The translations under genes and the position numbers were made by a program. From IMG/VR virus record IMGVR_UViG_3300037245_001434: a stretch of DNA of 64,000 nucleotides; one strand, 5' to 3'. Of this stretch, positions 1 through 60,066 are shown piece after piece. Source of the DNA: an uncultured virus (IMG/VR IMGVR_UViG_3300037245_001434) (Duplodnaviria > Heunggongvirae > Uroviricota > Caudoviricetes). Each line of letters starts with the position of its first letter. The stretch's first letter is position 1. Below the pieces are notes generated by a model. It did no database searches. It was not told where the DNA came from and saw nothing but the letters and a program-made list of their open reading frames with translations.

Positions 1-219
1 ATCTTGCTTAAGTAGGTACTCATAAAATATCTCACTGTGGTCATCGTGGAGCCAGATAAGGAGGTCGTAGGCTGTATTGGCCGCAGTGTTCATTGTTCGA
101 TCTCCGCGCTCCCATTTATCCAGAGTCCCGCGATCTACGTTTAGTGCGAGCATCATCTCTTTTGTTGATAAGCCTAGGTACAGGCGCTTTTGTTTTGGGG
201 CCATAGCTTTATTTAACAT
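1..219 (-). CDS. XRE-type HTH protein, runs off the window edge
   Basis: Manual translation MLNKAMAPKQKRLYLGLSTKEMMLALNVDRGTLDKWERGDR... fits an XRE HTH pattern; no stop before position 1. Confidence 0.6.
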   Translation of the reverse strand, partial: MLNKAMAPKQKRLYLGLSTKEMMLALNVDRGTLDKWERGDRTMNTAANTAYDLLIWLHDDHSEIFYEYLLKQD

Positions 220-19378: not shown

Positions 19379-19457
19379 AGTTTCTACCTATTCCAATATG
19401 CCCACTTTCTACATATTACAATATGGCCCGTTCTGTCTAGCTCTCTGTTATGTGTCA
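19379..19457 (+). repeat. attI-like site L (copy 1 of 79-bp inverted repeat), core GTTATGT 19447-19453
   Basis: 21-bp and 27-bp blocks identical to the reverse complement of 40503-40581; lies at the head of attC array 1. Confidence 0.75.
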
Positions 19458-19570
19458 TGTAGGTGGCTTAGCAAACGGTATCAATCTGGCATAATATGCC
19501 GCCATCAATAAACTGTATGACATCAGCCCATTAAGTGAGCAATAAAAAAGCGCCGCAAGTATTAGGTCGG

Positions 19571-19936
19571 TCACTGGTTAAATTCACTCTCTGAGATTTC
19601 AATCAGCTCTGACCGCTTGCGCCATATCCTATTGCCATTTTTAAGCCTAAGATTAACGTCATCGTATGACGCATCAGCATAAGAACCGTCAACTACACCC
19701 TTCTGCCCGGAGAATTTTTCACCACCACCGATCTTGTAGAAAGTACCACCAGCATCTGGGGTATTTAGCGATGCCCACCATTTAGGCTGCTTACTGCCTG
19801 AGTACTCAGCTCCCCATGGCTCCTGAAAAGAGCCACCGGAATAGTAAGCCTGAGTTACTAAGCAATCAGGCATAAATACCAGAACCATTGTATTTGATTC
19901 GGGCTTTTGCTCTTCAATTTGTTTCCATTCAATCAC
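19571..19936 (-). CDS. cassette 1 gene, DUF551-like N-terminus
   Basis: VIEWKQIEEQKPE..VLVF..KWWASL; GAGG RBS before a GTG start. Confidence 0.55.
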   Translation of the reverse strand: MIEWKQIEEQKPESNTMVLVFMPDCLVTQAYYSGGSFQEPWGAEYSGSKQPKWWASLNTPDAGGTFYKIGGGEKFSGQKGVVDGSYADASYDDVNLRLKNGNRIWRKRSELIEISESEFNQ

Positions 19937-19955
19937 AGGGTCACCTCTCGATACC

Positions 19956-20079
19956 ACATAACAAGTAAATAAACTCAGACCAAGGTCTGGTGTTTCTTTT
20001 CTTAATCTTCCCACTCGTCAAACATATCGCACCTCCTTAAGTTCATAGCCACCTTGGCTGGTGATTATGGTCGTTATAT
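19956..20079 (+). repeat. attC site 1
   Basis: ACATAAC...CAGACCAAGG...CCTTGGCTGG...GTTATAT. Confidence 0.85.
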
Positions 20080-20298
20080 TTCATTAAGCTGAAATGACTG
20101 AAGGGTTAGCACGCACTCGTCGTCATCACATGCTATTGATTTAGTCCATTCAATACCTGAGTCCCGCACGTCTACATGCGACAGCTCCTCGAAACCGCCA
20201 AAGTATTCGGCAAGAGTCTCATAACTAATATCTGAGTAGCCAAACACGCCAAGCACCGAATCATTAGCCCCCTCTGTTAATACGTAATATGTAGACAC
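20074..20298 (-). CDS. cassette 2 hypothetical protein
   Basis: GGAGG RBS, GTG start, stop TAA inside the attC core. Confidence 0.6.
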   Translation of the reverse strand: MSTYYVLTEGANDSVLGVFGYSDISYETLAEYFGGFEELSHVDVRDSGIEWTKSIACDDDECVLTLQSFQLNEI

Positions 20299-20313
20299 AA
20301 ACCACCTCCAAAA

Positions 20314-20400
20314 ATATAACAAGCAAAATCCACCGTGACGCTATAAAGCGCCGTTTTCTTAATTAATCACCGAGTGGCGCAGGTGATTTTCACGTTATAC
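20314..20400 (+). repeat. attC site 2
   Basis: ATATAAC...CACCGTGACGC...GCGCAGGTG...GTTATAC. Confidence 0.85.
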
Positions 20401-20748
20401 CTCTAAAGGCTCATACTTAACTTTCTCAAAATGCCAGTATCCATCGCCAATACCGCCAAGCTCATAATCAGGCGGCTCATAGCACATTCTAAATAAGTAA
20501 TCACCGTCACCACTATCAAATAAATTAAGAGTGTCTTCGTCGTCCATCTCAGCTACTTGCGTTTCTACGTCTTCGAGAATAGCTAAAGGCCAGTGACCCA
20601 CTGAGCCAGCAATAAATGGCGGATTGCCCTCCTGATAAAAGACCTGTACAAGCGCCTCTTTCAGCCTCGAAGGCATAACACGGCATTCGTTCTGACCTGC
20701 TACAACGTCGTTTTTTCCAACTTCATCACCACTTTCACCATCGCTCAT
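20395..20748 (-). CDS. cassette 3 hypothetical protein (starts in attC loop)
   Basis: ATG at 20748 inside attC3; stop in the attC2 core. Confidence 0.55.
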   Translation of the reverse strand: MSDGESGDEVGKNDVVAGQNECRVMPSRLKEALVQVFYQEGNPPFIAGSVGHWPLAILEDVETQVAEMDDEDTLNLFDSGDGDYLFRMCYEPPDYELGGIGDGYWHFEKVKYEPLEV

Positions 20749-20802
20749 CTCTTCATCCTCATGGTGTAATTGTCGCAGGCAGCACAATATAAATCGTTAT
20801 GT
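20673..20802 (+). repeat. attC site 3
   Basis: GCATAAC...CTGACCTGC...GCAGGCAG...GTTATGT. Confidence 0.8.
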
Positions 20803-20952
20803 GGCCTTCCATCCGTAAATAGTGCTCCCAAAAGGCACGATTCCCTCTTTTACCATTGCACCTTCACCAACCACCGCGTTTATTTTCCGCCACCCTTTTG
20901 CGGTTTTAATTCTCTGTCCAACTTGAATATTTTTACTTAATGTATAAGTCAT
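20797..20952 (-). CDS. cassette 4 small protein (51 aa)
   Basis: Manual translation MTYTLSKNIQVGQRIKTAKGWRKI...; stop in the attC3 core. Confidence 0.55.
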   Translation of the reverse strand: MTYTLSKNIQVGQRIKTAKGWRKINAVVGEGAMVKEGIVPFGSTIYGWKAT

Positions 20953-20954
20953 GT

Positions 20955-21266
20955 CTATTTCCCTATTAATTGTGAAGTTGTTGCAAGCTGGGTGAAGCTG
21001 AAAACCGTGTGGTTCATATATCCAGGGGTCTTTTTAAGTAGCCTCTCAACCCACTCACCTAGTCTTTCAGGTGAGTTAGGGGCTTTCCCTCTCGCCTGGG
21101 CGCACCCAAATATGGTCTCACCTTTCAAGCTGAGAAATTCAAATGCTACTGAGGTAACCCATTTCCCGCGTGGTTTCGCTGCGTTCTTTCGGGCTGCTTT
21201 GGTTTTTGCTTCAGAGGTCGCCTTGCCACCTTTAGCCCCAAGTTCCTGCGCTGCTACGTTTACCAT
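20955..21266 (-). CDS. cassette 4 basic protein with KGG-like N-terminus
   Basis: AQELGAKGGKATSEAKTKAARKNA; AGGAG RBS. Confidence 0.6.
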   Translation of the reverse strand: MVNVAAQELGAKGGKATSEAKTKAARKNAAKPRGKWVTSVAFEFLSLKGETIFGCAQARGKAPNSPERLGEWVERLLKKTPGYMNHTVFSFTQLATTSQLIGK

Positions 21267-21292
21267 GTCTCTCTCCTAAGTAAGTAATGGCA

Positions 21293-21320
21293 ATTATAGC
21301 AAAGCGCTTGGGTAAGTCAA
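21293..21320 (-). promoter_or_regulatory. cassette-borne sigma70 promoter TTGACT-N16-TATAAT (extended -10)
   Basis: Direct consensus match, TGCTATAAT. Confidence 0.7.
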
Positions 21321-21332
21321 GTATCCAAACCC

Positions 21333-21401
21333 ACATAACAATTAAATTCACGCGGACAACCTACGCTGCGCTCCGGTTTCCGGTGATTATGGGCGTTATA
21401 T
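21333..21401 (+). repeat. attC site 4
   Basis: ACATAAC...CACGCGGACAACC...GGTTTCCGGTG...GTTATAT. Confidence 0.9.
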
Positions 21402-21403
21402 TG

Positions 21404-21721
21404 CTAGTCCCACACTTTAGTGTTGGCAACCTTCCATATTTGCCCGGTTATGTTTGTTAGCTCTAACATCTGTCGCTCACCAAGCTTTCCAGAGAGTAGC
21501 TCATACAAATTCACTCTCGCTTGCTCTAGTTTTTCCAGCTCTAAAACAGGCACAGCCACGCACTTAGTGGTTGGTTTGGCCGGTAAGTCAGGCAGCATTG
21601 AAAGAGAGTGTGGTGGCTCTATCTGCTTTCCATGCTGCTCAATAACGCAGTTGCACGCATTACATACAGTGCTGCTGTCATGGTACGGTTCACATTGGTC
21701 TTTTGGGTGTTTACAGGTCAT
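21404..21721 (-). CDS. cassette 5 Cys-rich hypothetical protein
   Basis: CKH..C..CNAC; GGAG RBS. Confidence 0.55.
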   Translation of the reverse strand: MTCKHPKDQCEPYHDSSTVCNACNCVIEQHGKQIEPPHSLSMLPDLPAKPTTKCVAVPVLELEKLEQARVNLYELLSGKLGERQMLELTNITGQIWKVANTKVWD

Positions 21722-21740
21722 CTTCTGCTCTCCATCAGCA

Positions 21741-21826
21741 ATATAACAATTGCTTGAATTTTGACGGTTAAAGGTCGTCGTGTTTCCTGGTACTTGGTTC
21801 CGCCGCAAATTAAGCAGGCGTTAGGC
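21741..21826 (+). repeat. attC site 5
   Basis: ATATAAC..TGCTTGAATTTTGACGG...CCGCCGCAAATTAAGCAGGCGTTAGGC. Confidence 0.9.
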
Positions 21827-21858
21827 CGCACAACCAGAGGGCTATGCGGCCTGTATGT

Positions 21859-22350
21859 TTAGCTCTTGGTTTCCACTGTAGTTTTCTGCTCCACTGTTGG
21901 CCGTTGGTCAACAAATCCACAACAATCATTACCACCATCAACAGCGGTGAACGCCTCCTTCTGTGTTGTCACTTTAACGCCAGGGTGTCCAAAAACTTTA
22001 TCCACCAGTCGCTCAACCGTAGCGTTTCGGTCATTTGCAGAGTTCAGCTCTACCCGCATAACCTCCATGCTTATATTGCGTTCTCTAATGCTTACGTCTT
22101 TTTCTCTATCGCTCACTTCTTTGGCCGCTTTCTCAAGTGCATCGGCAGTGGTTTCAGCCATTCTTAGCACTTTAATTAGCTCGGCCTTTTCTTCAAGCTC
22201 TTGGTCTTGGTCTTTGATTCTACCGTTTGCTATTCTAAGTTCTCCCTTCGTTACCTTAGCCTCTGCAATAAAGTCACTCATTGCACCGGCTGTAGCTGCT
22301 GGTAGGTTATCGGCAATTAACTTTTTCATTTCTTTGGTAATATCAGTCAT
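21859..22350 (-). CDS. cassette 6 coiled-coil protein
   Basis: AGGA RBS; heptad-rich sequence. Confidence 0.6.
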   Translation of the reverse strand: MTDITKEMKKLIADNLPAATAGAMSDFIAEAKVTKGELRIANGRIKDQDQELEEKAELIKVLRMAETTADALEKAAKEVSDREKDVSIRERNISMEVMRVELNSANDRNATVERLVDKVFGHPGVKVTTQKEAFTAVDGGNDCCGFVDQRPTVEQKTTVETKS

Positions 22351-22397
22351 CGTCTTTTCCTTTTGTGTGTGTAATTCGTATTTCTTAAGAGGTGCCG

Positions 22398-22484
22398 GCC
22401 TAACACTCACATTCAGCGGATGGTGCTAGTCAAGCGTGTTTACTGGTACAGCAAACCGCCACCGTTGATGCTTAATCGTTATGT
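22398..22484 (+). repeat. attC site 6
   Basis: GCCTAAC...TCAGCGGATGG...CCACCGTTGA...GTTATGT. Confidence 0.85.
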
Positions 22485-22889
22485 GTCTACAGACTCAAGC
22501 ATTGTCCACACTTCGCCATAGGCCTCTTTCACATACCAGCCATTTTCCTCACCATCCACGCCAGATGGCCCAGTAGAAATAAAGCATTTAGCAAACTTAT
22601 GAGTACTTAGCTCCATTATCCCGGTTATTTTTTCCACCGGTATGCCGACTCTTTGATTTGCTACTGATGTAAATCCAATTATCTTCATTCTATTAATCCT
22701 CAGTTCATTCCAAATGCCAATTAGTAAGCTGAACTTCATCTCAGTATCTTGCACAGTTAACGGGCATCCAGTGCAATAAATCATATGCTCTTCAAAATCA
22801 ACAGCCGCATCATTCCCGCACCTAGGGCATGCTTGTACTGCTAACCCATTCCATAAATCACCCCTATTCCCCTCGATACCACATAACAA
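22479..22889 (-). CDS. cassette 7 ORF, Lar-like zinc ribbon plus second domain (start uncertain)
   Basis: CPRCG..CTGC..WNE, then MKIIGF...; stop in the attC6 core. Confidence 0.45.
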   Translation of the reverse strand: MLCGIEGNRGDLWNGLAVQACPRCGNDAAVDFEEHMIYCTGCPLTVQDTEMKFSLLIGIWNELRINRMKIIGFTSVANQRVGIPVEKITGIMELSTHKFAKCFISTGPSGVDGEENGWYVKEAYGEVWTMLESVDT

Positions 22890-23013
22890 TTCAAATTCAC
22901 AGCAGACTTGCTACAGTGTCGCGCTTTTCAATTATGTCGCCGTAAAGTATTACGGTAACATCTGCCAACTCATTGTATTTATTCACGCAAGATGGTGATT
23001 ATGGTCGTTATGT
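22881..23013 (+). repeat. attC site 7
   Basis: ACATAAC...TCACAGCAGACTTGC...GCAAGATGGTGA...GTTATGT. Confidence 0.8.
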
Positions 23014-23042
23014 TTCAAAACCACTTATCAATGGTAACGTAT

Positions 23043-23546
23043 ATGGCTACAGATAATGATATAACAAAAGAACACGCCAATAGTATAAAAGCAGCTGATG
23101 CTGGCAATAGAATTATTGGCATTTTAAAATCGCTATCAACAACATCTTCATCTACCATTGTTTTGTCAGTGATGCTCGTTTTCTTGCTGCATTCATATAT
23201 AGCATTTACATTATGTGATGCCTCATGGGTCGCATCATTTGGCGCATTATTATCCATTTTCTCTATCCTGTTAATTGCATCTGAATCATTATTTTCTGAA
23301 TTTAAAATTGATGTCATGAATATTTATGTAAATGGGTATCAAGATGAAATAGATACATTTGGCAATGACGGAATGTCGTGTCAAATACCAAAGGACAAAA
23401 TTGACTCAGAGCTTGAAGCTAGGCGAAAAAAGTTCAATATTAAATATAAAAACATAAGTCTTTATCTAAAGCTGTCTGTTTTTGGCACCTTAATATGGGC
23501 CTATGCTGGGTTCATAAACTTAAATAAACTAAACCTATGCTGCTAA
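23043..23546 (+). CDS. cassette 8 membrane protein (only sense-oriented cassette gene)
   Basis: About 3 TM segments, visibly AT-rich, ends 4 bp before attC8. Confidence 0.7.
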   Translation: MATDNDITKEHANSIKAADAGNRIIGILKSLSTTSSSTIVLSVMLVFLLHSYIAFTLCDASWVASFGALLSIFSILLIASESLFSEFKIDVMNIYVNGYQDEIDTFGNDGMSCQIPKDKIDSELEARRKKFNIKYKNISLYLKLSVFGTLIWAYAGFINLNKLNLCC

Positions 23547-23550
23547 ATAA

Positions 23551-23608
23551 ACATAACAATCAAATTCAGCCGACGCAAAAAGCCGCGCGGCTGATTTAAG
23601 CGTTATAC
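23551..23608 (+). repeat. attC site 8 (58 bp, classic 59-base element)
   Basis: ACATAACAATCAAATTCAGCCGACGCAAAAAGCCGCGCGGCTGATTTAAGCGTTATAC. Confidence 0.92.
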
Positions 23609-23642
23609 CGCTCTCAGCTTATGCCTTGAGCGGCACTATCCG

Positions 23643-23834
23643 TTAAAACAACTCTATTCTTCGGCTCAAAGTATTAACGTAATTTTCCATTGCTACTACT
23701 TGAACCATAAGTAAACCTTGGTCTACGGCTGTAAGATTTGCATAGGTATCTGTATGCATAAAATCTTTCAGCTTATCTAGCTTACTATCAAGCTCGTGCA
23801 TTTCATCTACTACTCGTTGTTGGTGTGGCTGCAT
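23643..23834 (-). CDS. cassette 9 crAss001_48-like small protein
   Basis: PHQQRVVDE..ELDSKLDKL..F...LL.VQ..AM..Y...LSRRI motif. Confidence 0.7.
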   Translation of the reverse strand: MQPHQQRVVDEMHELDSKLDKLKDFMHTDTYANLTAVDQGLLMVQVVAMENYVNTLSRRIELF

Positions 23835-23857
23835 AGTGCAAACTCCTTAGTAAATCG

Positions 23858-23986
23858 GTATAACAAGTCAAATTCACGCAGACCAAGGTCTGGCGTTTTC
23901 TCTAATAGCTTGGTTGCTTAATACTTATTCATGTCGTATCTCCTTAAGTTTCTAGCCACCTTGGCTGGTGATTATGGTCGTTATAC
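23858..23986 (+). repeat. attC site 9 (close relative of attC1)
   Basis: GTATAAC...CAGACCAAGGTCTGG...GCCACCTTGGCTGGTGATTATGGTCGTTATAC. Confidence 0.85.
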
Positions 23987-24598
23987 CTCATTCCCCCATA
24001 CGTCCCACCCATCGCGGGGCCGTCTAGCAAAAAGCTCTATTCGAGGGCCGTTGCTCATCTGTTCTATCATGTCCTGAAAAAACTCAGGCTTCTTACTGTG
24101 CTTCATAGGGCGCTTAACTTCCCACCATGTAGTGTCTAATCTGGTCTTTCCCTTCGGCATCTTCCCGCGCCTACCCAAAATTAGGTATTCTGTTGTAGGG
24201 CAATACAAGCCTCCTTGCCCCGTTCCTTTTGGTTTCTTGCACCATGTTAGCGTTTGGCAATATTTAAACCCCCACGCCTTTAGCACATCAAAAGCTGCAG
24301 GCAGGTATTTACCTGTAGTCCACAAATATAAATCACAGTTATCAGCGGCCAGCCCTTTCACATTCATCGCGCTTATCTCATCCACGCTCATGGTGTTGTA
24401 TGGCATCTCGCTGTCTTGTGGCTGGTAGCTAGAGCCACGCGGCGCAACACTGGCTTTACCCCACTTCCCATATTGCCAAGGTGGGTCAGCAACTATACAT
24501 TCGTAACCTCCATGAGGTATAACAATACCATCAAGCAGACCCGCTACTGCGCGATTTTCTTCTGGGTTTATCTCTTCATTCATGCTCTTAGCTTCCAT
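23981..24598 (-). CDS. MT-A70 family adenine methyltransferase (cassette 10)
   Basis: IVADPPW, LYLWTT, AWGFKY, HSKKP and IELFAR motifs. Confidence 0.9.
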   Translation of the reverse strand: MEAKSMNEEINPEENRAVAGLLDGIVIPHGGYECIVADPPWQYGKWGKASVAPRGSSYQPQDSEMPYNTMSVDEISAMNVKGLAADNCDLYLWTTGKYLPAAFDVLKAWGFKYCQTLTWCKKPKGTGQGGLYCPTTEYLILGRRGKMPKGKTRLDTTWWEVKRPMKHSKKPEFFQDMIEQMSNGPRIELFARRPRDGWDVWGNEV

Positions 24599-24637
24599 AG
24601 TTTTATTTACGCGGGCGGCTTATGCAAACCGTTATAT
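24517..24637 (+). repeat. attC site 10
   Basis: GTATAAC...AAGCAGACCCGC...GCGGGCGGCTT...GTTATAT. Confidence 0.85.
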
Positions 24638-24865
24638 TGCCCTACTTTTTAACCAATCAAAAATTGCTATTGGTGAATAAGCTTGACCTGGGAACTCATC
24701 AGTAAACTCTAAAATAACCTGCTCCCATGCTGGCACCCACCACCAATCAGTCCAGTCTATAGTGTCATGCCATCCATATATCCCATCTTCGTTTTTACAG
24801 TAGTTGATTCTTGTGTCTAACTCAGCAGCCCTTTTGCATAGCTTTTTAAATTGCCTTGGCTTCAT
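24632..24865 (-). CDS. cassette 11 hypothetical protein
   Basis: MKPRQFKKLCKRAA start; stop in the attC10 core. Confidence 0.55.
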   Translation of the reverse strand: MKPRQFKKLCKRAAELDTRINYCKNEDGIYGWHDTIDWTDWWWVPAWEQVILEFTDEFPGQAYSPIAIFDWLKSRAI

Positions 24866-24871
24866 CTGTCA

Positions 24872-25078
24872 TCACTCCGTAGGCTGTCGAAATCTATGCT
24901 CACCAACAATATCTCGACATAGATCCACACACACATTACAAATGTAAATCTGACTATCTAGAGGAGTTTTATTTGCAACTAAAACCTCTACTTCAGTCTG
25001 ACTCTTGCCACAAAAAGAGCAATATAACAATAGCTTCAACGCAGATTCGGTGCTTTCGTTCATTTTCTCGGTCTCCAT
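24872..25078 (-). CDS. ClpX C4-type zinc-finger protein (cassette 11)
   Basis: [22 protein letters not shown]. Confidence 0.8.
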
Positions 25079-25116
25079 CGTGTTAATTTCGCTCTCTGGT
25101 TAAGCGGTCGTTATAA
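25022..25116 (+). repeat. attC site 11
   Basis: ATATAAC..GCTTCAACGCAGA...TCTGGTTAAGCGGTCGTTATAA. Confidence 0.75.
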
Positions 25117-26765
25117 ATCACTCATAGTAACTTCGTTTTCATTGGCGATATCTTGCAATATCTGAGCCCTGTTTTTCTCTGCCTTGCCAGTAATATATTC
25201 TCGAATCCACTCCTCTACTCGGCTATTGAATTCATAGAGCGCTGCCAACTTACCCTCATCACAATCAGCAGTACGCATTGCAATATGTAGTGCGGCGTAT
25301 TCGGTCTCATGTCGAGCACCATAGACGGCTTCGGTCAGATGGTCGTCATAATCCTTTTTACTGGTGAGTACCCGGCACAACTCATTGACTTTCCATTGCT
25401 CTATGGCTTCCTCTTCTACACAAAGCTCAGCCATGCCGCCTAGATGCTCATTCAGGTCGCTATCAACCTTGCAGAACTCTGAGTTCAATGACTGACCATC
25501 AATTTGTAGCTCTCTGTTCATCTCATCAACTCAATTACTTTAAGCACTACAACATCAAAAGCGATATATCCAATAAATAATGACGCTACGAATGCACAAG
25601 CTATAAGCATGAGCAATGGAATTGGTGAGTAGGTTTGTTTATTGCTAGTCATTCTGCTTGCCTCTTTATTTCGAATGGGATGATATTGGTTGTTCCGTTG
25701 GTTTCAGCCTCATTCCTTCGAACAGTAGATAGCGGAGTGATGACTAAATCACCATTCCCGTGGTCGACAACCTCGCAATCGAGCATCTTGGTTATGAGGT
25801 ACACTTCCATGGTGGTGATATCTTGGTGCAGACTTATCGGCATCTCATTCATCTCCAGAGTTCCTGAAAAATTCTTTACGCTGAGCCACAGCTACGCATG
25901 GAAGGTGACACCACTTTCCGGCGTAAAACATGGCTGGCTGATCCGGTGTTAATGGTTCGTTGCATTTGCTGCACTGGATCGTCTCTGTTGGTCTTGTTAG
26001 AAGCATAATTTTCTATACTCCATGATCATGCTGTCAAAAACCGGCTTTGCGCCCATTGTAAAACTTGGTCCCCATATTTTAGCGGCCGCCCATATTTCCA
26101 TTTCAATGGTTTCATTGTGTGGTGGAGGCGCAATACATAACTCAAGATAGTGCTCGCGCCATATTTCCCAGCCACGCGAATTTGGTTTTAACGTTACATG
26201 GTCATTCCAATTAATATTGATCACATCAATCTCCTTAATTAATCAGATTGGCAGTGGATAACGAAAGGCGGGTGAGTCACACTCTTACCATTGGAAGTGA
26301 CCAATGAAGCAACATGCCAAACCTTAGATCCTTCTATTGTATCTTCCACCACAAACTCATATGAAATCGTGGACATTTCACCTCGTAACTCATTCTTGCA
26401 CTCAAGCCAGAAGAGGTATTCCATGTATATGGTGAATACCGGGTGATGGCCTTCAGCGACCAACCGGCTACGCTTTTCACGCAGCTCCTTTAGTAACTTA
26501 TCAAGTTTCATGACTTCACCTCTGCCAGCGCCTTTAATGCTAATCGCTCTTCAAAGGTGTCTCGCTCATCTTTCTCGAGGTTAGCCTTCCTGATTTCAAC
26601 ATTATGTTTATTTAGCACAAAATGATGCGGGTCTTCCCGTGGCGGATTCATCATAAGCGCATGGCGTCGATGAAATTTAGCTACTGCATGACCGCCTCTA
26701 TTTTCTATCCCTACAAAAGTGATGTCTTTCTCTCTCATATCAGCCTCATTGTTAAGTAGCAACAT
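25111..26765 (-). other. cluster of small leftward hypothetical genes (25111-25521, 25649-25852, 25997-26224, 26239-26511, 26508-26765)
   Basis: Closely packed co-oriented ORFs, no recognisable family. Confidence 0.55.
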
Positions 26766-30371: not shown

Positions 30372-31054
30372 TACGCTCTCCCCATGCTTTTCTTTAAATC
30401 AGCTAAGAATTTCCGACCAAATTCAGAGCTACTAATTTTCTCTTCCTGCTCTTTGGTTGGGCCTGTTAGTTTTCTGGCATCTTCTTTTTTGCATTCAATC
30501 AATAGATCCTTATTTTTAGTTGCAGTAGCGAGCGCCTTATATGAGTCGTAGTCGGTCCGGCTCTTTACGTAGTTAACTAACAGCCTGCCATCTACAGCGG
30601 CTTCGATCAGCACAGAATCGCGACCATCTTTATCGTGTCCTAGTGATGCCGTCCAATCTGTTGGTACGCCACTCTCTCGACTTTCGTCAACAAGCCGTTG
30701 GTATTCGCGCTTAAATGATATCTGCGCCCCTACGACGTCTTTAGTGCAGTACTGCTCCCAAGCTACCGACCACGCCCCAAGCATCTCCTGAGTGACTACA
30801 GCGGTCTCTGATTCATCTTTTGGCATGGTTGCCCACGCAACATCTACAGAAGGGCGACCATCTTCAGCTTGAATATATTCTTCAACAACGCTAATCGAAA
30901 ATCGAACCCGCTTTTTTCTCATCTTCCTTAGGGCTCGATCGACATCATTGATATTGTAGGCCGATAAATCTTCAGCCATTAACGCTATGCCTTCAGGGTT
31001 CATCTGCTGGCCCATTGCGTATGCTGTAGCTGTTAGTTTTTCAATAAGTGTCAT
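30371..31054 (-). CDS. putative helicase loader/replication protein
   Basis: Follows the initiator; DGRPSVDVAWA and SLGHD motifs. Confidence 0.55.
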   Translation of the reverse strand: MTLIEKLTATAYAMGQQMNPEGIALMAEDLSAYNINDVDRALRKMRKKRVRFSISVVEEYIQAEDGRPSVDVAWATMPKDESETAVVTQEMLGAWSVAWEQYCTKDVVGAQISFKREYQRLVDESRESGVPTDWTASLGHDKDGRDSVLIEAAVDGRLLVNYVKSRTDYDSYKALATATKNKDLLIECKKEDARKLTGPTKEQEEKISSSEFGRKFLADLKKSMGRA

Positions 31055-31890
31055 CTACCTTGCCTCTCATCAAGAATTCTTTGTGCTTCAATTGCTGTAT
31101 TAGATACGCTCTGTCTCTCGTCTACCTGCTGAGCTGTTTGGCGCGTCATCTGCTTATTTGTTGCCCACTCGGTTCGTAGTTTTTCAGCATCGCTTAACAT
31201 AATTCCAATCGGGTGCATTTTATTCACGTAAAAAGAATTGTTATGCGAGACATAAAAAGCTGCAATGTGAGGAGCCTCATCTATTGGCACCCGCTTAATG
31301 AAATTAGAGAGCTGACCATTAACCGTCGCATTGCGCACCGGCTCGATGTTGTAGCGTCGGTAGTAGGCATCTGAGTATGATTGCCAAACAAATGTAGATG
31401 GTGCGGGCTCTTTTTTCTTTCGTGGCTTAGTCGGAGACTTAGCCGCAACTGTTTCTGTAGGTGGAGTTGAAGAAGAAGAGGAAGACTGAAGTTGAAGAGC
31501 TATAATTCCGTCATTGGGGTTGCTATTAGCATCGCCAATAGGGTCGCTATTAGGCTTGCTATCTTTAGCCCATCTTTTCTTTGCACCCTCTCGCCCTGCT
31601 TCAGCTTGTTTATCGCGGTACGCCTGTTGTTGCTGCCTAGTTTCCTCTAAACGTGGATTACGACGACGACCATCTTCATCAACTGGGAACTTATGCTTTA
31701 ATTCATCCCACACACTAACGACCCCTATGGCAACCCCATTAGCAAGCCTATTAGGGTCGCTATGTAGAGAGCCATTTACCCACTGATGAGATAGCAATCT
31801 TATATATACACCAACCTCCTGATCGGTCATTTCTGCCGTGTCAGTTAAGAAGTCAGCTGCATAGAACTGGAATGCAGGCGATTTAGCCAT
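31051..31890 (-). CDS. replication initiator (DUF1376/YdaU-like)
   Basis: KSPAFQFYAADFL..EVGVYIRLL..QW..GREGAKKRW. Confidence 0.8.
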   Translation of the reverse strand: MAKSPAFQFYAADFLTDTAEMTDQEVGVYIRLLSHQWVNGSLHSDPNRLANGVAIGVVSVWDELKHKFPVDEDGRRRNPRLEETRQQQQAYRDKQAEAGREGAKKRWAKDSKPNSDPIGDANSNPNDGIIALQLQSSSSSSTPPTETVAAKSPTKPRKKKEPAPSTFVWQSYSDAYYRRYNIEPVRNATVNGQLSNFIKRVPIDEAPHIAAFYVSHNNSFYVNKMHPIGIMLSDAEKLRTEWATNKQMTRQTAQQVDERQSVSNTAIEAQRILDERQGR

Positions 31891-38218: not shown

Positions 38219-38446
38219 ATGGCAAAAAGTATTGAAGCAATAATAAGTGAGTATCTTGGCGTAAAGATGGAAGAGGTCACGCCGGACGCTCATATTTTTG
38301 ATGATCTTGGGGCGGACTCACTAGATCATGTCGAAATAGTTATGGCTATCGAGGAGGAATATTCAATAGAAATACCTGATGATGATTGTGAGAAGTGGAA
38401 AACAGTTCAGGATATTACTGCCACGGTAGAGAGGCTCAAAAAATGA
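38219..38446 (+). CDS. acpP: acyl carrier protein
   Basis: [21 protein letters not shown] with the phosphopantetheine Ser motif. Confidence 0.9.
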
Positions 38447-38688
38447 ATAAAACACTAGCCGATAGATTGCGTCGCAGAAGGCGAGAGTGCGGGGTCACGC
38501 AGGCTCAACTTGCTGCAAAAGCCTGCACATCACAAGGCGTAATAGCAAAGATTGAAAACGGTAAATCTAAGTTACCACGCATTATCGAGGAAATAGCTAA
38601 AGTGCTGGGAGTTAATCCAGGCTGGTTAATGTTTGGGCCAAAGAGTGCACCGAAGATCGTTCCTGAGTCGCCTTTTCCAGAAGACTAA
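38443..38688 (+). CDS. XRE family HTH regulator
   Basis: [33 protein letters not shown]. Confidence 0.85.
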
Positions 38689-38855: not shown

Positions 38856-38942
38856 GTATAACGATTTGAATAACCAGCGGCATACTAAAGGTTAAATAGA
38901 GGCGGTAAGTTTGCACCGTCTGCGTTAATTACCTTGTTATAC
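38856..38942 (-). repeat. attC site (array 2, third)
   Basis: Minus strand GTATAACAAGG..AACGCAGACGG...CCGCTGGTT..CGTTATAC. Confidence 0.8.
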
Positions 38943-38968
38943 ATGCACTTACTTTAGAGGTTAAGTTA

Positions 38969-39496
38969 ATGACAAAGAAGTACCAGATAATATATGCCGA
39001 CCCCCCGTGGCGATATAGTTTTAGCAAAAGCAACTCACGGAAGATAGAAAATCAATACCCCACAATGACCCAAAAGGAGCTATGCGCCCTAAGTGTTCCA
39101 GCAGACGACAATAGCGCTCTCTACTTATGGACTACCGCCCCAAAGCTTTTAGAGGGGCTGGAGGTAATGAAGGCGTGGGGGTTTACTTATAAATCACAAG
39201 CGGTATGGGACAAGAAGAGAATAGGGATGGGCTACTGGTTTAGAGGGCAGCACGAAATTCTGTTAGTTGGCACCAAAGGTAAGTTTAGCCCCCCAGAGCA
39301 AAAGGACAGGCGCAGCAGTGTTTTTGAGTTTACAAGAGGCCAGCACAGCAAGAAGCCGGACGAGGTGCGCGATTTAGTAAAGGCGTGGTTCCCAGATGCA
39401 AACAGAGTTGAGCTATTTTGCCGATACCCCGCCGAAGGCTGGGACGTATGGGGTAACGAAGTTGAATGCACCGCCGAATTACACTGTGCTGTATAA
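38969..39496 (+). CDS. MT-A70 family adenine methyltransferase (second copy)
   Basis: IYADPPW, LYLWTT, GMGYWFRGQHE, HSKKP and VELFCR motifs; stop in attC core. Confidence 0.9.
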   Translation: MTKKYQIIYADPPWRYSFSKSNSRKIENQYPTMTQKELCALSVPADDNSALYLWTTAPKLLEGLEVMKAWGFTYKSQAVWDKKRIGMGYWFRGQHEILLVGTKGKFSPPEQKDRRSSVFEFTRGQHSKKPDEVRDLVKAWFPDANRVELFCRYPAEGWDVWGNEVECTAELHCAV

Positions 39497-39576
39497 CGAT
39501 TACAATAAATTGCGGCGGAACCAAGCTGATACAGAGCGCGTAGCTTGAACCGTCGATTTGATTTTGCTTGTTATGT
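39491..39576 (-). repeat. attC site (array 2, second; relative of attC5)
   Basis: Minus strand ACATAACAAGC..AAATCGACGGTT...CTTGGTTCCGCCGCAATTT..CGTTATAC. Confidence 0.85.
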
Positions 39577-39602
39577 GGTGTTGAAAGGAATAGAGGTAAT
39601 TT

Positions 39603-39830
39603 ATGAGTGAATGGATAAAGGTTACTGACAGGCTGCCAGAAATCTTCGACACATATTATGTATACCCATCTGGAAAGTACAGCGGGAGCTTTGTTGAATT
39701 CTGGACGTTCGAAGACTTTAAGGGCCACAAGAAAAACACTTTTGAATGGACGAATAGTGACGATGATGTGTTTCAAGTTGATGTTACGCACTGGATGCCG
39801 ATACCAGCCCCACCGATAGCTGAGGATTAA
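39603..39830 (+). CDS. DUF551-like protein
   Basis: MSEWIKVTDRLPE...VTHWMPIPAPP. Confidence 0.8.
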   Translation: MSEWIKVTDRLPEIFDTYYVYPSGKYSGSFVEFWTFEDFKGHKKNTFEWTNSDDDVFQVDVTHWMPIPAPPIAED

Positions 39831-39834
39831 TAGA

Positions 39835-40020
39835 ATGATTTGCTCTAACTGCATGTACAGGAATGATTGCTACCTATACGGCAAAGTAAAAGACCAATGC
39901 ACCTATAAGGAGGAAGGTGAGATAAGCATGTCGCTTGGAGCGATTACCGCGACTATTGAAGAAGCAAAAAAAGACGACCCAGAGTTTTACCAAGAGTTGA
40001 AAGAAATGTTTAACACATAA
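39835..40020 (+). CDS. small Cys-rich protein
   Basis: CSNC..C..C; stop in attC core. Confidence 0.5.
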   Translation: MICSNCMYRNDCYLYGKVKDQCTYKEEGEISMSLGAITATIEEAKKDDPEFYQELKEMFNT

Positions 40021-40144
40021 CGATAAATAGTAAGCCGCCGCGAGAACGTGGCAGTGACTTAATAAAGGAATTATGAATATGAACACACTAAACTCTAAAA
40101 AAAGAGCGATGCTGTTAGCGGTCTGCTTGACTGCCGTGTTATGT
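40015..40144 (-). repeat. attC site (array 2, first)
   Basis: Minus strand ACATAACACGG..AAGCAGACCGC...GCGGCGGCTT..CGTTATGT. Confidence 0.8.
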
Positions 40145-40345
40145 GTGGGTTCACTTAGCGGGTGCATGTATCAAGAGATAGACCAGAACGACATTGCTAA
40201 TGCTGTGGATGCCTGTAAAAACAAAGGCGGTGTATTTCATATAGAAGAGCACTTTACAGGAGACACCGTAGTAACCTGCAAAAACGCAAAAATAGTAAAT
40301 ATCGACAAGTGGGCAATAGCCGATGTTGCTGGAGATCAAAAATGA
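40073..40345 (+). CDS. predicted lipoprotein starting in the attC loop
   Basis: AAGGA RBS; KKR, hydrophobic stretch, LSGC lipobox. Confidence 0.65.
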   Translation: MNMNTLNSKKRAMLLAVCLTAVLCVGSLSGCMYQEIDQNDIANAVDACKNKGGVFHIEEHFTGDTVVTCKNAKIVNIDKWAIADVAGDQK

Positions 40346-40512
40346 AAAAGTTTATTTTACGGCGCAAGATGATTTACACCGAACGTGCCGAGGTTGAAGC
40401 CGAAAGCTTTGATGCTGCAAAAGAAATATTAGAAGGTGACGATGTTGATTTTGAAGTACAGAACGACGACATGCTGCACGATAGTAGCTATGAATACATT
40501 GGTGACACATAA
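40342..40512 (+). CDS. small acidic protein
   Basis: MKKFILRR..EVEAESFDAAKE; stop in the attI-like core. Confidence 0.55.
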   Translation: MKKFILRRKMIYTERAEVEAESFDAAKEILEGDDVDFEVQNDDMLHDSSYEYIGDT

Positions 40513-40581
40513 CAGAGAGCTAGACAGAAGGTGAGCGTATTGAGATATATAGAATAGGCTATATTGGAATAGGTAGAAACT
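40503..40581 (-). repeat. attI-like site R (copy 2 of 79-bp inverted repeat)
   Basis: Reverse complement of 19379-19457; minus-strand core GTTATGT at 40507-40513. Confidence 0.75.
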
Positions 40582-45509: not shown

Positions 45510-46121
45510 ATGACGTCAACCAATTTTATCACAAAAGAATGCAGTAGCTGCGAAGATATTAAGCCGTTAAATGAGTTTTACAAAAGAAAATCATCTAAAG
45601 ATGGTTATCATTGCCATTGTAAATCATGCGTATCATTGAACGATGATGAATACAAAAGAACAAAAAAAGGCCTCGTTTTAAAAATATACAAATCTCAAAT
45701 ATCAAGATCAAAAGCAAGGGGTTATGCTAAGCCTGATTATAGTCTTAATGAATTAAGAGAATGGGTATTTAGTCAAGATAATTTCAATGAGATATATGAA
45801 TCGTGGGTTTTGTCTGATTATAAAAAGATGCTAATACCTTCTTGTGATAGATTAGATGATTACAAGCCATATAGCTTGCCAAACATTAGACTTGTAACGT
45901 GGCAAGAAAACAAAAGCAAATCTTATTGTGACAGAAAAAATGGCCTGAATAATAAACACAGTAAATATGTTGCACAGTTTAATATCGATGGTGAATTGAT
46001 AAGTGGATATTATTCGACAAAGCAAGCAGAGAGGGAAACAGGGGTGGCAAATACAAGCATTTCCGCTTGCTGTCTTGGGAAAAGAAAAACGGCAGGTGGC
46101 TTTATATGGAAAAGAAGATAA
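45510..46121 (+). CDS. putative homing endonuclease with NUMOD1 HTH
   Basis: KECSSC..CKSC, PSCDRLDD..YSLPNIRLVTWQEN, C-terminal CCLGKRKTAGGFIW; AT-rich. Confidence 0.75.
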   Translation: MTSTNFITKECSSCEDIKPLNEFYKRKSSKDGYHCHCKSCVSLNDDEYKRTKKGLVLKIYKSQISRSKARGYAKPDYSLNELREWVFSQDNFNEIYESWVLSDYKKMLIPSCDRLDDYKPYSLPNIRLVTWQENKSKSYCDRKNGLNNKHSKYVAQFNIDGELISGYYSTKQAERETGVANTSISACCLGKRKTAGGFIWKRR

Positions 46122-55778: not shown

Positions 55779-55807
55779 AGTATATATCAACCTTTCACGT
55801 TTATCAA
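55779..55807 (-). promoter_or_regulatory. sigma70 promoter TTGATA-17-TATACT for the leader/tRNA array
   Basis: Consensus match overlapping the 3' end of rtcB; 8 nt before the leader ATG. Confidence 0.65.
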
Positions 55808-56890
55808 CGGCGTTACGTGATGGATAGTATCCACTAAATCAGCCTGCAGGCGCATCACTTCAAAGATGTCCTTGTAAGCTAATGGCGATTCATCCAAGGT
55901 GCTTTCATCGACAAGCGCGGTAACGCCTTGCATGGTTGCCTTGAAATCCTCTACGTTAAGCTCTCGTTCTGCTTGCTTGCGCCCCATCACGCGCCCAGCC
56001 CCGTGAGAGCTAGAATATAAAGAATCAGGGTTTCCTTTACCTCGCACAATGAATGAGCCATCACGCATATTTCCAGGTATCACGCCCATCATTCCATCTT
56101 CTGCATGGGTAGCACCTTTCCGGTGAATCCATAAACCGTCTTTCTCTTCTGCATGGTTATGGTTACGGTTAATAAGATGATCCCATTCACCATGCCCATC
56201 ACAATAAAAAGCCATTGCATCAAGAACTGAAATTAACATCTGCTGGCGGTTTATTAATGCGTACTCAAGCGCCCAATTCAGATCATTGATGTATGCCTGA
56301 CCATTATCACTATCAACTCTAAATCCATAGTGCCCGTCACGTACCTTGCCCTCGGGATCTGCAAGCCGTACATATTCAGTAGCTATGCCATGGCCTACGC
56401 CGCGTGAACCGGAATGAATAATAATCCAAACCTTGTTAGTTTCATCTTTGCCAATCTCGATAAAGTGGTTCCCACCTCCAAGAGTACCAATACCTCTAAA
56501 CCCCTTACGCTTTTCAAAGGCTTTCCGGCCAAGGTCTGCCAAGTGCCAGGGATCTAAATCACATCCTGCAGGGTGTTGGTGTACTTTGCCAACGCCGACA
56601 GGAACGCGCGTGTATATCTCATCAAAGATCATCCTCCCGTTTTTTATAATGTCATCAACATCAAATGTAGTTGGCAGTGCGCACATTCCACACCCGATAT
56701 CGAAGCCCACCCATGATGGTAGAATCACTCCCTCAGTGGCTACGACTGCACCAATAGGCAATGAATATCCCGTGTGAGCATCTGGCATTAATGCACCCTT
56801 AATAGAAAAGTCTTGCTCCATTGCGCTGTTAAACTGCTCTAATGCGGTTTCTTCTAAGTGTTCTGCATAAATTTTAATCTGCTTGCTCAT
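55787..56890 (-). CDS. rtcB: RNA ligase RtcB
   Basis: MPDAHTGY, VGFDIGCG, GTLGGGNHFIE, HSGSRG, NHNH, HRKGAT and SSSHGAGR motifs. Confidence 0.95.
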   Translation of the reverse strand: MSKQIKIYAEHLEETALEQFNSAMEQDFSIKGALMPDAHTGYSLPIGAVVATEGVILPSWVGFDIGCGMCALPTTFDVDDIIKNGRMIFDEIYTRVPVGVGKVHQHPAGCDLDPWHLADLGRKAFEKRKGFRGIGTLGGGNHFIEIGKDETNKVWIIIHSGSRGVGHGIATEYVRLADPEGKVRDGHYGFRVDSDNGQAYINDLNWALEYALINRQQMLISVLDAMAFYCDGHGEWDHLINRNHNHAEEKDGLWIHRKGATHAEDGMMGVIPGNMRDGSFIVRGKGNPDSLYSSSHGAGRVMGRKQAERELNVEDFKATMQGVTALVDESTLDESPLAYKDIFEVMRLQADLVDTIHHVTPLINVKG

Positions 56891-56959
56891 TCAATATCTC
56901 CATCCCTCTCTCAACCAGCCGATCAAATACCGGCCACGTATGCGGCTTAGATAGCTGCT

Positions 56960-57901
56960 TTACAATTGCCGTTCAACTGCACTAACTAGAAAATCATCCC
57001 AAAAGCCGCGATCAACATTCTCTGGCAGCTCGCACGTAGAAGACAGCTCCTCTACTCGATCCATTAAGGCCTCAAGCGTTGGCGCTACCTCTGATAAGTA
57101 ATCAGCCTCACCACGCTTGATCCTCTTCAAGTAACCTGCCTGCTCAAGAGGGAAAACAATGGTTCCTTTGGTGTAAATCTCTTCAAGTTGATAAGCGGCT
57201 CTCATGGCATGTGAGAGTGCTTTCCAGTCAATGCCCTGGTTCTTTGCGGCTAACTCTGCCCTTGATCCAAATGCTGTTACGAATATAGCCAGTGATTCAA
57301 TGACGCTATCAACCTTTACTGTTTCGAGGAACTTCTTACCGCATACCTGATAGATTTTGCATTTGTTTGTATCTTTGTCGTTTGGCTCAAGGTGGTGGAT
57401 ATGCTCCCCTGTTGGTAGCATGCTCCATACGTCACGCATCCGTGTATCAGACGGAAGCCCACTAAGTAAAGCGATCACCTCTTTAGCTGCATTTAGCCTG
57501 CTACCTTTAACGCCATACTTAGCCGCCTGCCTTCTACAGTAACCAACAAACGCCTTAAGGTTCTTGGTGTAGAACTTATCTCTATTAGCAGCGATAGCTT
57601 TCCACACATCACTAGACTCGATGATCATTGAATCAGGAGCGTGTAGCATGTCAATCGCAACTGTTTGACCTTCACACGCAAGCTCAATGAACCGGTGCAG
57701 AGAAAACATTTCATCATCAATATCGCCAGCGCCGTTCTTTCCGTGCTTATCGCCGGTAGAGGTGCTGATTGATTTGGGAAATTTAGCCAGCAATATCTGC
57801 CGTTTCGTTGGCATATAAATACCCTTAAAGTCATCATCAGATGATTCTGTATTGGTGCCGTAAAGATGTGACCCAAACTTCATATAAACTAGCTTCTGCA
57901 T
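56960..57901 (-). CDS. DNA pol beta-superfamily nucleotidyltransferase (RlaP-like)
   Basis: FGSHLYGTNTESSDDDFKGIY and DWKALSHAMR motifs. Confidence 0.85.
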   Translation of the reverse strand: MQKLVYMKFGSHLYGTNTESSDDDFKGIYMPTKRQILLAKFPKSISTSTGDKHGKNGAGDIDDEMFSLHRFIELACEGQTVAIDMLHAPDSMIIESSDVWKAIAANRDKFYTKNLKAFVGYCRRQAAKYGVKGSRLNAAKEVIALLSGLPSDTRMRDVWSMLPTGEHIHHLEPNDKDTNKCKIYQVCGKKFLETVKVDSVIESLAIFVTAFGSRAELAAKNQGIDWKALSHAMRAAYQLEEIYTKGTIVFPLEQAGYLKRIKRGEADYLSEVAPTLEALMDRVEELSSTCELPENVDRGFWDDFLVSAVERQL

Positions 57902-58479: not shown

Positions 58480-58585
58480 CTCCTTTTAATTTAAACTCAG
58501 CTGTATCATTGCGCTCTTTTGGTTTTGCGTAGGTTCCCATTGTTTGTGGCCTTGATGTTAGCCGCCTTCCTTGGCAGCTATTTGG

Positions 58586-60055: not shown

Positions 60056-60066
60056 GCTATCTCTCC

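Follow-up and report, generated by a model that had tools for sequence, protein, structure and literature searches.

Integrase-less attC arrays with genes on the bottom strand in an uncultured tailed phage

Two attC arrays with reversed gene layout

The uncultured virus of IMG/VR record IMGVR_UViG_3300037245_001434 (Caudoviricetes) carries two integron-type cassette arrays in which nearly all genes are antisense to their attC sites. The stretch analysed, called the window here, is 64,000 nucleotides (nt) long. There are 14 attC sites in it, arranged in two arrays at 19.4–25.1 kb (11 sites) and 38.9–40.5 kb (3 sites), and together with two terminal cores they bound 14 cassettes of 321–658 bp each. 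Genes are antisense to attC polarity in 13 of the 14 cassettes and sense in one (23043–23546). In a Vibrio chromosomal array used as control, the longest open reading frame (ORF) is sense in 39 and antisense in 7 of the 46 cassettes with an ORF of at least 40 amino acids (47 intervals), which differs from the phage with Fisher p = 1.8e-7. No tyrosine-recombinase Pfam match was found among the 116 ORFs of the window, and no intI adjoins either array. The hairpin sites are genuine integron-type attC, and they form two clusters of attC sites lacking an integron integrase (CALINs), with 11 and 3 consecutive sites and no integrase nearby.

The genes of the window diverge from about 32 kb, the leftward ones reaching down to 19.5 kb and the rightward ones up to 50 kb. 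One array lies at the outer end of each of these two operons, and polarity is mirrored about the genome centre. Sites of the left array (19956–25116) read AAC-AA...GC/TC-GTT on the plus strand, and sites of the right array (38856–40144) read likewise on the minus strand. They are designated A to K and R1 to R3, respectively, and the cassettes c1 to c11 and r1 to r3.

Strand polarity of the attC sites

The top strand is the plus strand in the left arm and the minus strand in the right arm, because four mutually independent lines (the rule of the extrahelical bases, the Vibrio control, a covariance model, and the homology of one site) all agree. In the text of Nivina 2016 (PMC5027507), both attC strands start with RYYYAAC and end with GTTRRRY, and the extrahelical bases lie on the arm opposite the bottom-strand AAC triplet, as a rule G at position 16 together with T at 23 or 24, and in some cases a further one at 20. 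The control array adjoins an intact intI in a Vibrio chromosomal integron, and its 51 sites were taken on the strand pointing away from intI. Its extra bases number 149 on the 5' arm, where they occupy 16, 20, and 24, versus 4 on the 3' arm. The 14 phage sites, put through the same alignment with plus as top strand in the left arm and minus in the right, have 27 and 4, respectively. The sequence-only reading had named folding as the check that could turn its polarity round; with 27 versus 4 extra bases on the canonical arm, the recombining strand is not the opposite one.

Site by site, the 5' arm is favoured in 10 of 14 cases, A, C, and E tie, and R2 favours the 3' arm. A second and slightly different scoring of the arms gave clean patterns for A (16/20/24) and C (16/23). 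Canonical spacing is found in J and R3 (16 and 23) and in F and H (15 and 23), and extra bases about four apart in B (17/22/25), I (16/21/25), K (16/20), and R1 (20/24). The bottom strand has T at 23–25 in nine of the 14 sites. Extrahelical bases of the attC kind are present, and the first of them is G in B, J, K, and R3 only. The scan for AAC...GTT hairpins was noisy, with 61 and 62 matches per strand, and served arm alignment at known sites only.

The covariance model was trained on 19 of the 51 Vibrio sites, aligned on their top strand under the published pairing scheme; it is our own model and not that of IntegronFinder. Over the whole window, with filters off, it returned 23 matches at E ≤ 10. 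Eleven of these are on the sites, all on the top strand as called in the sequence-only reading, and the remaining 12 are scattered with scores up to 10.1 bits. Over 19–41 kb it returned 24 matches, 13 of them at the 14 sites, eight with E from 1.2e-8 to 0.008; matches at E < 0.01 are all within the two clusters. Thirteen of the 14 sites are thereby recognized, all in one polarity, and the opposite strand gave a single overlapping match, partial and of 6.0 bits. Scores are weak for C, F, and G (6.5–8.2 bits), yet the ends of these sites were predicted exactly. Tested on DNA outside the training set, the model put a class 1 integron attC on the same strand as the cassette gene, and it put seven sites of a second Vibrio array, beside a decayed intI, on the strand that leads away from this intI.

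Over 52 nt (query bases 10–61), site H has 90.6% identity to an attC on an Escherichia coli plasmid, in the same orientation as the gene of that attC. The order on the plasmid is intI1, two cassette genes, the match, qacEdelta1, and sul1. The earlier call of 13 antisense cassettes out of 14 is thus upheld by the model, the extrahelical bases, and the homology of site H.

Structure of the sites and cassette boundaries

Inverted core boxes (...TAAC / GTTA...) are present in all 14 sites. Several R boxes depart from the strict consensus (RYYYAAC / GTTRRRY) at inner positions, e.g., ACATAAC. The sites are 58–133 nt long, within the 57–141 nt of attC, and form imperfect hairpins, with an unpaired spacer of 5–7 nt followed by paired stems in the arm alignments.

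The six bases that follow the G of R' in an integron array are part of the cassette that comes next and match its R''. In the phage, R'' and its flank show complementarity to the preceding site's R' at 8–10 of 10 positions throughout (left array, 99 of 110; outermost right cassette, 9 of 10, counted by eye), and a poorer match to R' of their own site (left array, 71 of 110). Five different core variants are involved. Such pairing is the pattern that exchange at the core would make, and it fits either polarity. The crossover is placed at G|TT in section 3.4 of Qi, Rajabal, Ghaly, Tetu and Gillings 2023 (PMC9892861; hereafter Qi 2023).

Gene layout of the cassettes

The features of the two arrays are as follows, with model scores in bits.

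19379..19459, plus: left terminal element at the attI position; repeats 19381–19399 and 19406–19424, spacer, core GTTATGT at 19447–19453
19571..19942, minus: c1 gene (cassette 19448–20073), antisense, stop outside the core
19956..20079, plus: attC A, 124 nt, 22.4 bits on plus; 7-codon mini-ORF with strong ribosome-binding site in the loop
20074..20322, minus: c2 gene, TAA is the complement of 20074–20076, in R' of A
20314..20400, plus: attC B, 11.6 bits on plus; extra bases 17, 22, and 25 on the 5' arm
20395..20748, minus: c3 gene, stop in R' of B, start at 20748 inside attC C
20673..20802, plus: attC C, 6.7 bits on plus, identical ends; overlaps the 5' end of c3; extra bases 16 and 23 or a tie, depending on scoring
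20797..21266, minus: c4, ORFs 20797–20952 and 20955–21266, stop in R' of C
21293..21320, minus: sigma-70-like promoter in c4, between attC D and the gene; TTGACT, 16-nt spacer, TG-TATAAT, 11 of 12 matches
21333..21401, plus: attC D, 22.3 bits on plus
21404..21808, minus: c5 gene, stop 9 nt past the R' core
21741..21826, plus: attC E (R' GTTAGGC), 35.6 bits on plus, E 1.2e-8
21859..22410, minus: c6 gene, from the ORF list
22398..22484, plus: attC F (R'' GCCTAAC), 6.5 bits on plus; extra bases 15 and 23 on the 5' arm
22479..22889, minus: c7 gene, stop in R' of F
22881..23013, plus: attC G, 8.2 bits on plus; four extra bases on the 5' arm
23043..23546, plus: c8 gene (cassette 23008–23602), the sole sense cassette; predicted membrane protein, 33.9% GC
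23551..23608, plus: attC H, 58 nt, mobile-integron type, 23.1 bits on plus; 90.6% identical to a class 1 integron attC
23643..23834, minus: c9 gene, crAss001_48-like (Pfam/PHROG match)
23858..23986, plus: attC I, paralogue of A, 30.0 bits on plus; extra bases 16, 21, and 25; repeat families D1 and D10; 4-codon mini-ORF in the loop
23981..24598, minus: c10 gene, MT-A70 DNA methyltransferase, stop in R' of I, start inside attC J
24517..24637, plus: attC J, 16.3 bits on plus; extra bases 16 and 23 (bottom strand G and T)
24632..25078, minus: c11, ORFs 24632–24865 and 24872–25078 (ClpX-type zinc finger), stop in R' of J; second ORF starts in attC K
25022..25116, plus: attC K, innermost left, 26.0 bits on plus
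25111..25521, minus: flanking phage gene, stop in R' of K
38856..38942, minus: attC R1, innermost right, 19.2 bits on minus
38969..39496, plus: r3 gene, second MT-A70 methyltransferase, stop in R' of R2
39491..39576, minus: attC R2, R boxes and arms only, no model match; fits the R-box chain
39603..40020, plus: r2, ORFs 39603–39830 (DUF551) and 39835–40020, stop in R' of R3
40015..40144, minus: attC R3, 12.0 bits on minus; extra bases 16 and 23 (bottom strand G and T)
40073..40512, plus: r1, ORFs 40073–40345 (lipoprotein-like, starts in R3) and 40342–40512; TAA at 40510–40512 in the terminal core
40503..40581, minus: right terminal element, homologous to 19379–19459; core is the reverse complement of 40507–40513

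Cassette c8 alone (1 of 14) has its gene on the attC top strand and upstream of attC. The other 13 have the gene on the bottom strand and attC 5' of it. Read on the coding strand, such a cassette consists of C, the L' arm, the loop, the L'' arm with the extra bases, R'', a ribosome site, the gene, and ...TATAA. As attC precedes the gene on this strand, it is the leader of its own gene.

Ten stops had been listed as supplied by the core, and all ten ORF ends do fall on the TTA of the GTTA core or, on the plus strand of the right arm, on TAA in ...ATAAC. Minus-strand ORFs end in the core at 20074, 20395, 20797, 22479, 23981, 24632, and 25111, and plus-strand ORFs at 39496, 40020, and 40512. Nine of these stops belong to antisense cassettes, and the tenth (25111) to the phage gene next to the left array on its inner side. 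A core stop in 9 of 13 antisense cassettes is to be compared with a one-in-three frame expectation (binomial p = 0.009), and in these nine TAA is the last triplet before the crossover (TAA|C); the remaining four stop outside the core, at 19571, 21404, 21859, and 23643. The four starts said to lie inside attC were found there as well, at 20748 (C), 24598 or 24583 (J), 25078 (K), and 40073 (R3). They sit in the variable loop, and the reading frames continue through the arm on the R'' side.

The genes are transcribed towards the array ends that had been called attI-like; the outer end of each array is formed by a conserved terminal element whose core is GTTATGT. The proposal of a separate phage class of cassettes stands in part, helped by the phage-type cargo, the layout of Pseudoalteromonas phage H101, and the contrast with the bacterial-looking c8. 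It follows logically from the reversed polarity that such a cassette would be silent from the cassette promoter (Pc) in a host integron. Landing of new cassettes at the terminal element is an assumption, and attC × attC insertion anywhere in the array is equally possible.

The cassettes may be expressed from inner early promoters, as the sequence-only reading proposed. At least one cassette, c4, has its own strong sigma-70-like promoter (21320–21293, minus), so self-expression is possible for at least one of them. Promoter-like sites are not enriched in the left array (12 versus 13.3 expected). Two mini-ORFs with strong AAGGAG ribosome sites are coded on the minus strand, at 20003–20026 in attC A (7 codons) and at 23924–23938 in attC I (4 codons). 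Downstream of each come a local hairpin (CAGACC..GGTCTG) and a stretch rich in T, which the scan flags as terminator-like. The loops of A and I look like a putative leader-peptide or attenuator arrangement upstream of the next gene.

The sense cassette c8

The G+C content of c8 is 33.9%, against 40–48% in the other cassettes. It is present in a hydrothermal-vent metagenome with 5 differences in 515 nt (about 99% identity), and the neighbouring phage genes have zero depth there at a likeness of at least 85%. The homology begins 6 nt upstream of G|TT, within the conserved attC arm; metagenome contigs bearing c8 are short, and the view ends with them. The c8 protein has few homologues, one of them in a metagenome-assembled genome of Cellvibrio. 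In a marine-sediment metagenome that contains 99% of the sampled words of the window and is probably its source, the core of attC H (23563–23596) is about 45 times deeper than the phage (983 versus 22) and is joined to other R boxes, e.g., GCCTAAC and GTTAGGC; H-type attC is therefore common in the integrons of that community. H-related sequences were found also on plasmids of Desulforapulum (6 places), Thiolapillus, Desulfosarcina, and Alteromonas. Cassette c8 seems to be a recent capture from the bacterial cassette pool, and it faces against the phage operon because insertion of the integrase type preserves attC polarity.

Three R'-to-R'' joints in the vent metagenome (20077–22401; 21398/21399–22880/22881; 21402–23859) were considered as excision products and rejected. 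Their sides are only 20–24 nt long, and they were treated as repeat artefacts.

Terminal elements

The segment 19379–19459 aligns with the reverse complement of 40503–40581, and this inverted pair of about 80 nt bounds the arrays on the attI side. Each element has two 19-nt direct repeats (TTTCTACNTATTNCAATAT), a spacer, and the GTTATGT core, which pairs with R'' of the first cassette. In the window, the repeat motif is confined to the two array ends (3 matches versus 0.31 expected). Two weak matches to the terminal element, 19–32 nt long with E 0.005–0.008, were found among 301 Vibrionaceae genomes and taken as chance, and exact-pattern scans of viral contigs found nothing. The terminal element may be an equivalent of attI or a plain operon boundary.

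Proposed mechanism

The arrays are best explained, and this with good probability, as mobile phage cassettes of reversed polarity that are moved by an integrase acting in trans, with c8 as a recent capture. The polycistronic operon would stay intact through any insertion, excision, or permutation at attC sites, because the crossover falls between cassettes and the stop travels with its cassette. The integron integrase would be supplied in trans, most likely by the host, because none was found in the 64-kb window. In 13 of the 14 cassettes the coding strand is the attC bottom strand, i.e., the recombining one. The reversed polarity would place this strand as the non-template strand displaced by RNA polymerase, which would favour attC folding and excision and is the reverse of the orientation in chromosomal integrons.

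A tandem array of a 12-nt unit (4.2 copies, 31513–31562) with inverted copies nearby (31730–31754) lies inside an O-like/primosomal gene (31051–31890), an arrangement that we take to resemble the lambda origin within gene O. Judged by these repeats, the tandem array, situated between the two attC arrays, is likely the replication origin. Forks leaving 31051–31890 would make the coding strand the lagging-strand template in both arms. With the bottom strand as coding strand and forks coming from the centre, the sites would be in the most recombination-prone orientation without any genes being head-on to replication. According to the text of Loot et al. 2017, excision is higher with bottom strands in the template of the lagging strand, and 25 of 30 chromosomal integrons are in the opposite, stabilising orientation.

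Several points weigh against this explanation. The first bottom-strand extrahelical base is A or C, not the usual G, in several sites. The scores of C, F, and G (6.5–8.2 bits) are no higher than those of the scattered background matches, and R2 is without a model match and has its single extra base on the 3' arm, which is the wrong one. GC skew tracks gene direction as well as replication, so the origin is an inferred one, and later rolling-circle replication, being unidirectional, would break the symmetry argument. The phage runs beyond the window, and because of this an integrase of its own could still be coded elsewhere on its genome. No recombination event was directly seen, and no close phage relative was found for comparison of cassette content.

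No bacterial integron with this attC family was found either. An 18-mer from the attC 3' arm occurs at 2 loci in viral contigs and 49 in genome contigs, with about 35 expected by chance (an estimate), and six inspected loci of these 51 (L001, L002, L018, L025, L028, and L035) are not in an attC array. The three loci of a 22-mer variant in metagenome contigs are likewise all outside arrays. These k-mer searches turned up no host integron and no sister phage bearing this attC family.

A broader view, tentative and rather doubtful at present, is that phages keep a mirror-image pool of cassettes, compatible with bacterial integrons in recombination and isolated from them in expression. The reversal would then be adaptive, core stops and loop starts would keep permutations translatable, and the terminal elements would be the attI equivalent. 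If true, a phage cassette placed in a host integron would lie antisense to Pc, and in a phage operon it is the bacterial cassette that would be antisense, like c8. A host integrase met briefly during infection could then reshuffle accessory and anti-defence genes, and the reversal would have the bottom strand serve both as non-template strand and as lagging-strand template.

Alternative explanations

The hairpins could be derived from attC and now act mainly as RNA or transcription elements between cistrons, no longer recombined, with the strand kept for the sake of a useful mRNA hairpin. Such a role fits A and I, whose arms contain terminator-like hairpins with T runs and whose loops contain mini-ORFs with strong ribosome sites, and it fits the four gene starts within attC loops and the cassette with its own promoter. 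It would not maintain the cassette-specific pairing of R'' with the previous R' (8–10 nt, five core variants), which is expected from exchange at G|TT. The geometry of extra bases specific to integrase binding is also retained, a foreign sense cassette with a bacterial-type attC is inserted in register, and the 12 promoter-like sites are no enrichment over the 13.3 expected. A loss of recombination in favour of this role is unlikely for these reasons; RNA-element and recombination roles are not exclusive and can coexist.

Capture of passive fragments of a bacterial chromosomal integron, with antisense genes as an accident, has a precedent in the Vibrio anguillarum phages with captured chromosomal-integron fragments described in Qi 2023 (PMC9892861). 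Here, two mirrored arrays are each co-oriented with the flanking phage operon and share the same 80-nt end element, the cargo is of phage type (methyltransferases, DUF551, crAss001_48-like protein), the antisense share is 13 of 14 against 7 of 46 in a real chromosomal array, and no bacterial array with this attC family was found by the k-mer searches. Passive capture is thus very improbable.

Least credible of all is that polarity was misassigned and the minus strand of the left arm is the top one, with conventional sense genes that stop in R'': the R boxes alone are symmetric, the complementarity of R'' to the previous R' suits either orientation, and a stop overlapping the ...TAAC box would be natural for a sense gene running into R'' in bacterial cassettes, but the Vibrio-trained model places 13 of 14 sites on the strand first proposed with no full-length match on the other, extra bases are 27 versus 4 on the expected arm at canonical positions (149 versus 4 in the control), and site H shares homology with the attC of a class 1 integron when read in the direction of the genes there.

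Phage genome and neighbouring genes

The window is phage DNA, with Pfam matches for major capsid, portal, Mu-F-like, and baseplate proteins and the small terminase subunit. Rad52/Erf-type annealing protein, RdgC, RtcB, and an NAD-salvage pair were matched as well. The sign of GC skew switches with gene direction, and the cumulative skew has its minimum at 30–32 kb. A 56-kb contig of the probable source metagenome extends past coordinate 64000, so the phage is longer than the window.

Cassette cargo comprises two different MT-A70 DNA methyltransferases (one per arm), a ClpX-type zinc-finger protein, a DUF551 protein, a crAss001_48-like protein, and a small lipoprotein-like protein. It is of phage type, as 6 of 20 proteins match PHROGs; the remaining proteins match nothing. 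The phage is distant from all catalogued ones: the array region had no match in the phage collection by megablast, the closest portal match is 34% identical, and no relative was found with the RdgC query. The terminase query led to one distant relative, G027, with structural proteins 34–77% identical. G027 has no arrays and a single attC-like hairpin only, situated at 106–190 (minus) at the terminal repeat, with CCTAAC...GTTAGGC and two extra A 7 nt apart on the 5' arm.

A block of RNA-repair and NAD-salvage genes at 55787–60825 (minus) encodes an RtcB ligase, RlaP-like nucleotidyltransferase, HD-domain protein, nicotinamide phosphoribosyltransferase (NAMPT), and a protein like phosphoribosyl pyrophosphate (PRPP) synthetase. 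The pair of NAMPT and ribose-phosphate pyrophosphokinase is found also in phage H101. Two genes, 45510–46121 and 62502–63077, are homing-endonuclease-like. One of them, situated between the genes of the two terminase subunits (small and large), contains an I-HmuI NUMOD-like domain; the other codes for a T5orf172/MUG113 protein. Just inside the right array, at 38219–38688, an acyl-carrier-protein-like (PP-binding) gene overlaps a gene for a helix-turn-helix regulator.

Comparison with known systems

Integrons are understood as bacterial devices in which attC polarity makes the captured gene face Pc. That a phage lineage systematically works with the opposite strand shows the recombination module to be separable from the expression logic of Pc. 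The hairpin doubles as gene leader and the crossover core as stop codon. The arrangement suggests a route by which phages swap small accessory genes, e.g., the two methyltransferases, through an integrase that they do not encode themselves. It further connects attC strand, transcription, replication direction, and recombination rate in a way that can be tested, and so extends the leading- versus lagging-strand rule of chromosomal integrons.

Integrase-less attC arrays in phages are already known; for the reversed gene layout, no description was found in the literature searched. The phage CALINs of Qi 2023 (PMC9892861) likewise are integrase-less attC arrays in virulent phages with DNA methyltransferase cargo. 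There, IntI1 recombined five of six phage attC sites into attI1, with bottom strands outdoing top strands, and the arrays of H101 and TJE1 are called typical in structure. The words antisense, opposite, and reverse are absent from the main text of that paper, figures being outside this text check, and full-text literature searches together with a 2026 preprint, as far as their text was accessible, gave no description of the reversed layout. In difference from that account, genes are on the attC bottom strand both here and, by our own check, in H101. Further features of the present phage are two mirrored arrays, a shared terminal element, core stops, and loop starts.

The survey of phage genomes for the same polarity, suggested by the sequence-only reading, succeeded for H101 and gave no model matches for three other published phage CALINs, those of MW202573, TJE1, and P12002L, whose attC types differ from the training set of the Vibrio-type model. 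In H101 the model finds four attC on the plus strand (75919–77987, 36–41 bits), the first being the reverse complement of the PH101_attC1 oligonucleotide in the supplement of Qi 2023, and all 14 annotated genes of the attC region are on minus. As H101 shows it, the reversed layout is present in a published and experimentally validated case. Integron finders that assume sense cassettes will mis-describe phage arrays; that of H101 was published as typical despite its bottom-strand genes by our check.

Vibrio arrays of the Vibrio cholerae repeat (VCR) type resemble the phage arrays in their R''/R' cores (ATAAC...GTTAT type), in having three extrahelical bases at 4-nt spacing and cassettes that are a few hundred bp long, and in the related attC paralogues present inside one array. 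They differ in adjoining intI and attI, while the phage window is without integrase. Vibrio bottom strands lie in the leading strand's template according to the text of Loot 2017, and those of the phage would be on the lagging-strand template.

Cassettes of class 1 mobile integrons resemble site H, with an attC of 58 nt and two extrahelical bases 7–8 nt apart, and c8, with its canonical sense layout. Site H itself is like the attC of the last cassette in the class 1 integron of the E. coli plasmid. Unlike in class 1 integrons, the sense layout is found in 1 of 14 phage cassettes, and this one opposes phage transcription.

Toxin-antitoxin cassettes in chromosomal integrons are usually inverted. 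Reverse-oriented bacterial cassettes with their own promoters have the gene antisense to attC, as in the phage, and have to be expressed from a promoter that is not Pc; Qi 2023 (PMC9892861) mentions one toxin-antitoxin cassette that carries its own promoter. Reversed cassettes are a minority in bacteria (7 of 46 in the control), whereas in the phage they are the rule and are tied to operon read-through, core stops, and loop starts.

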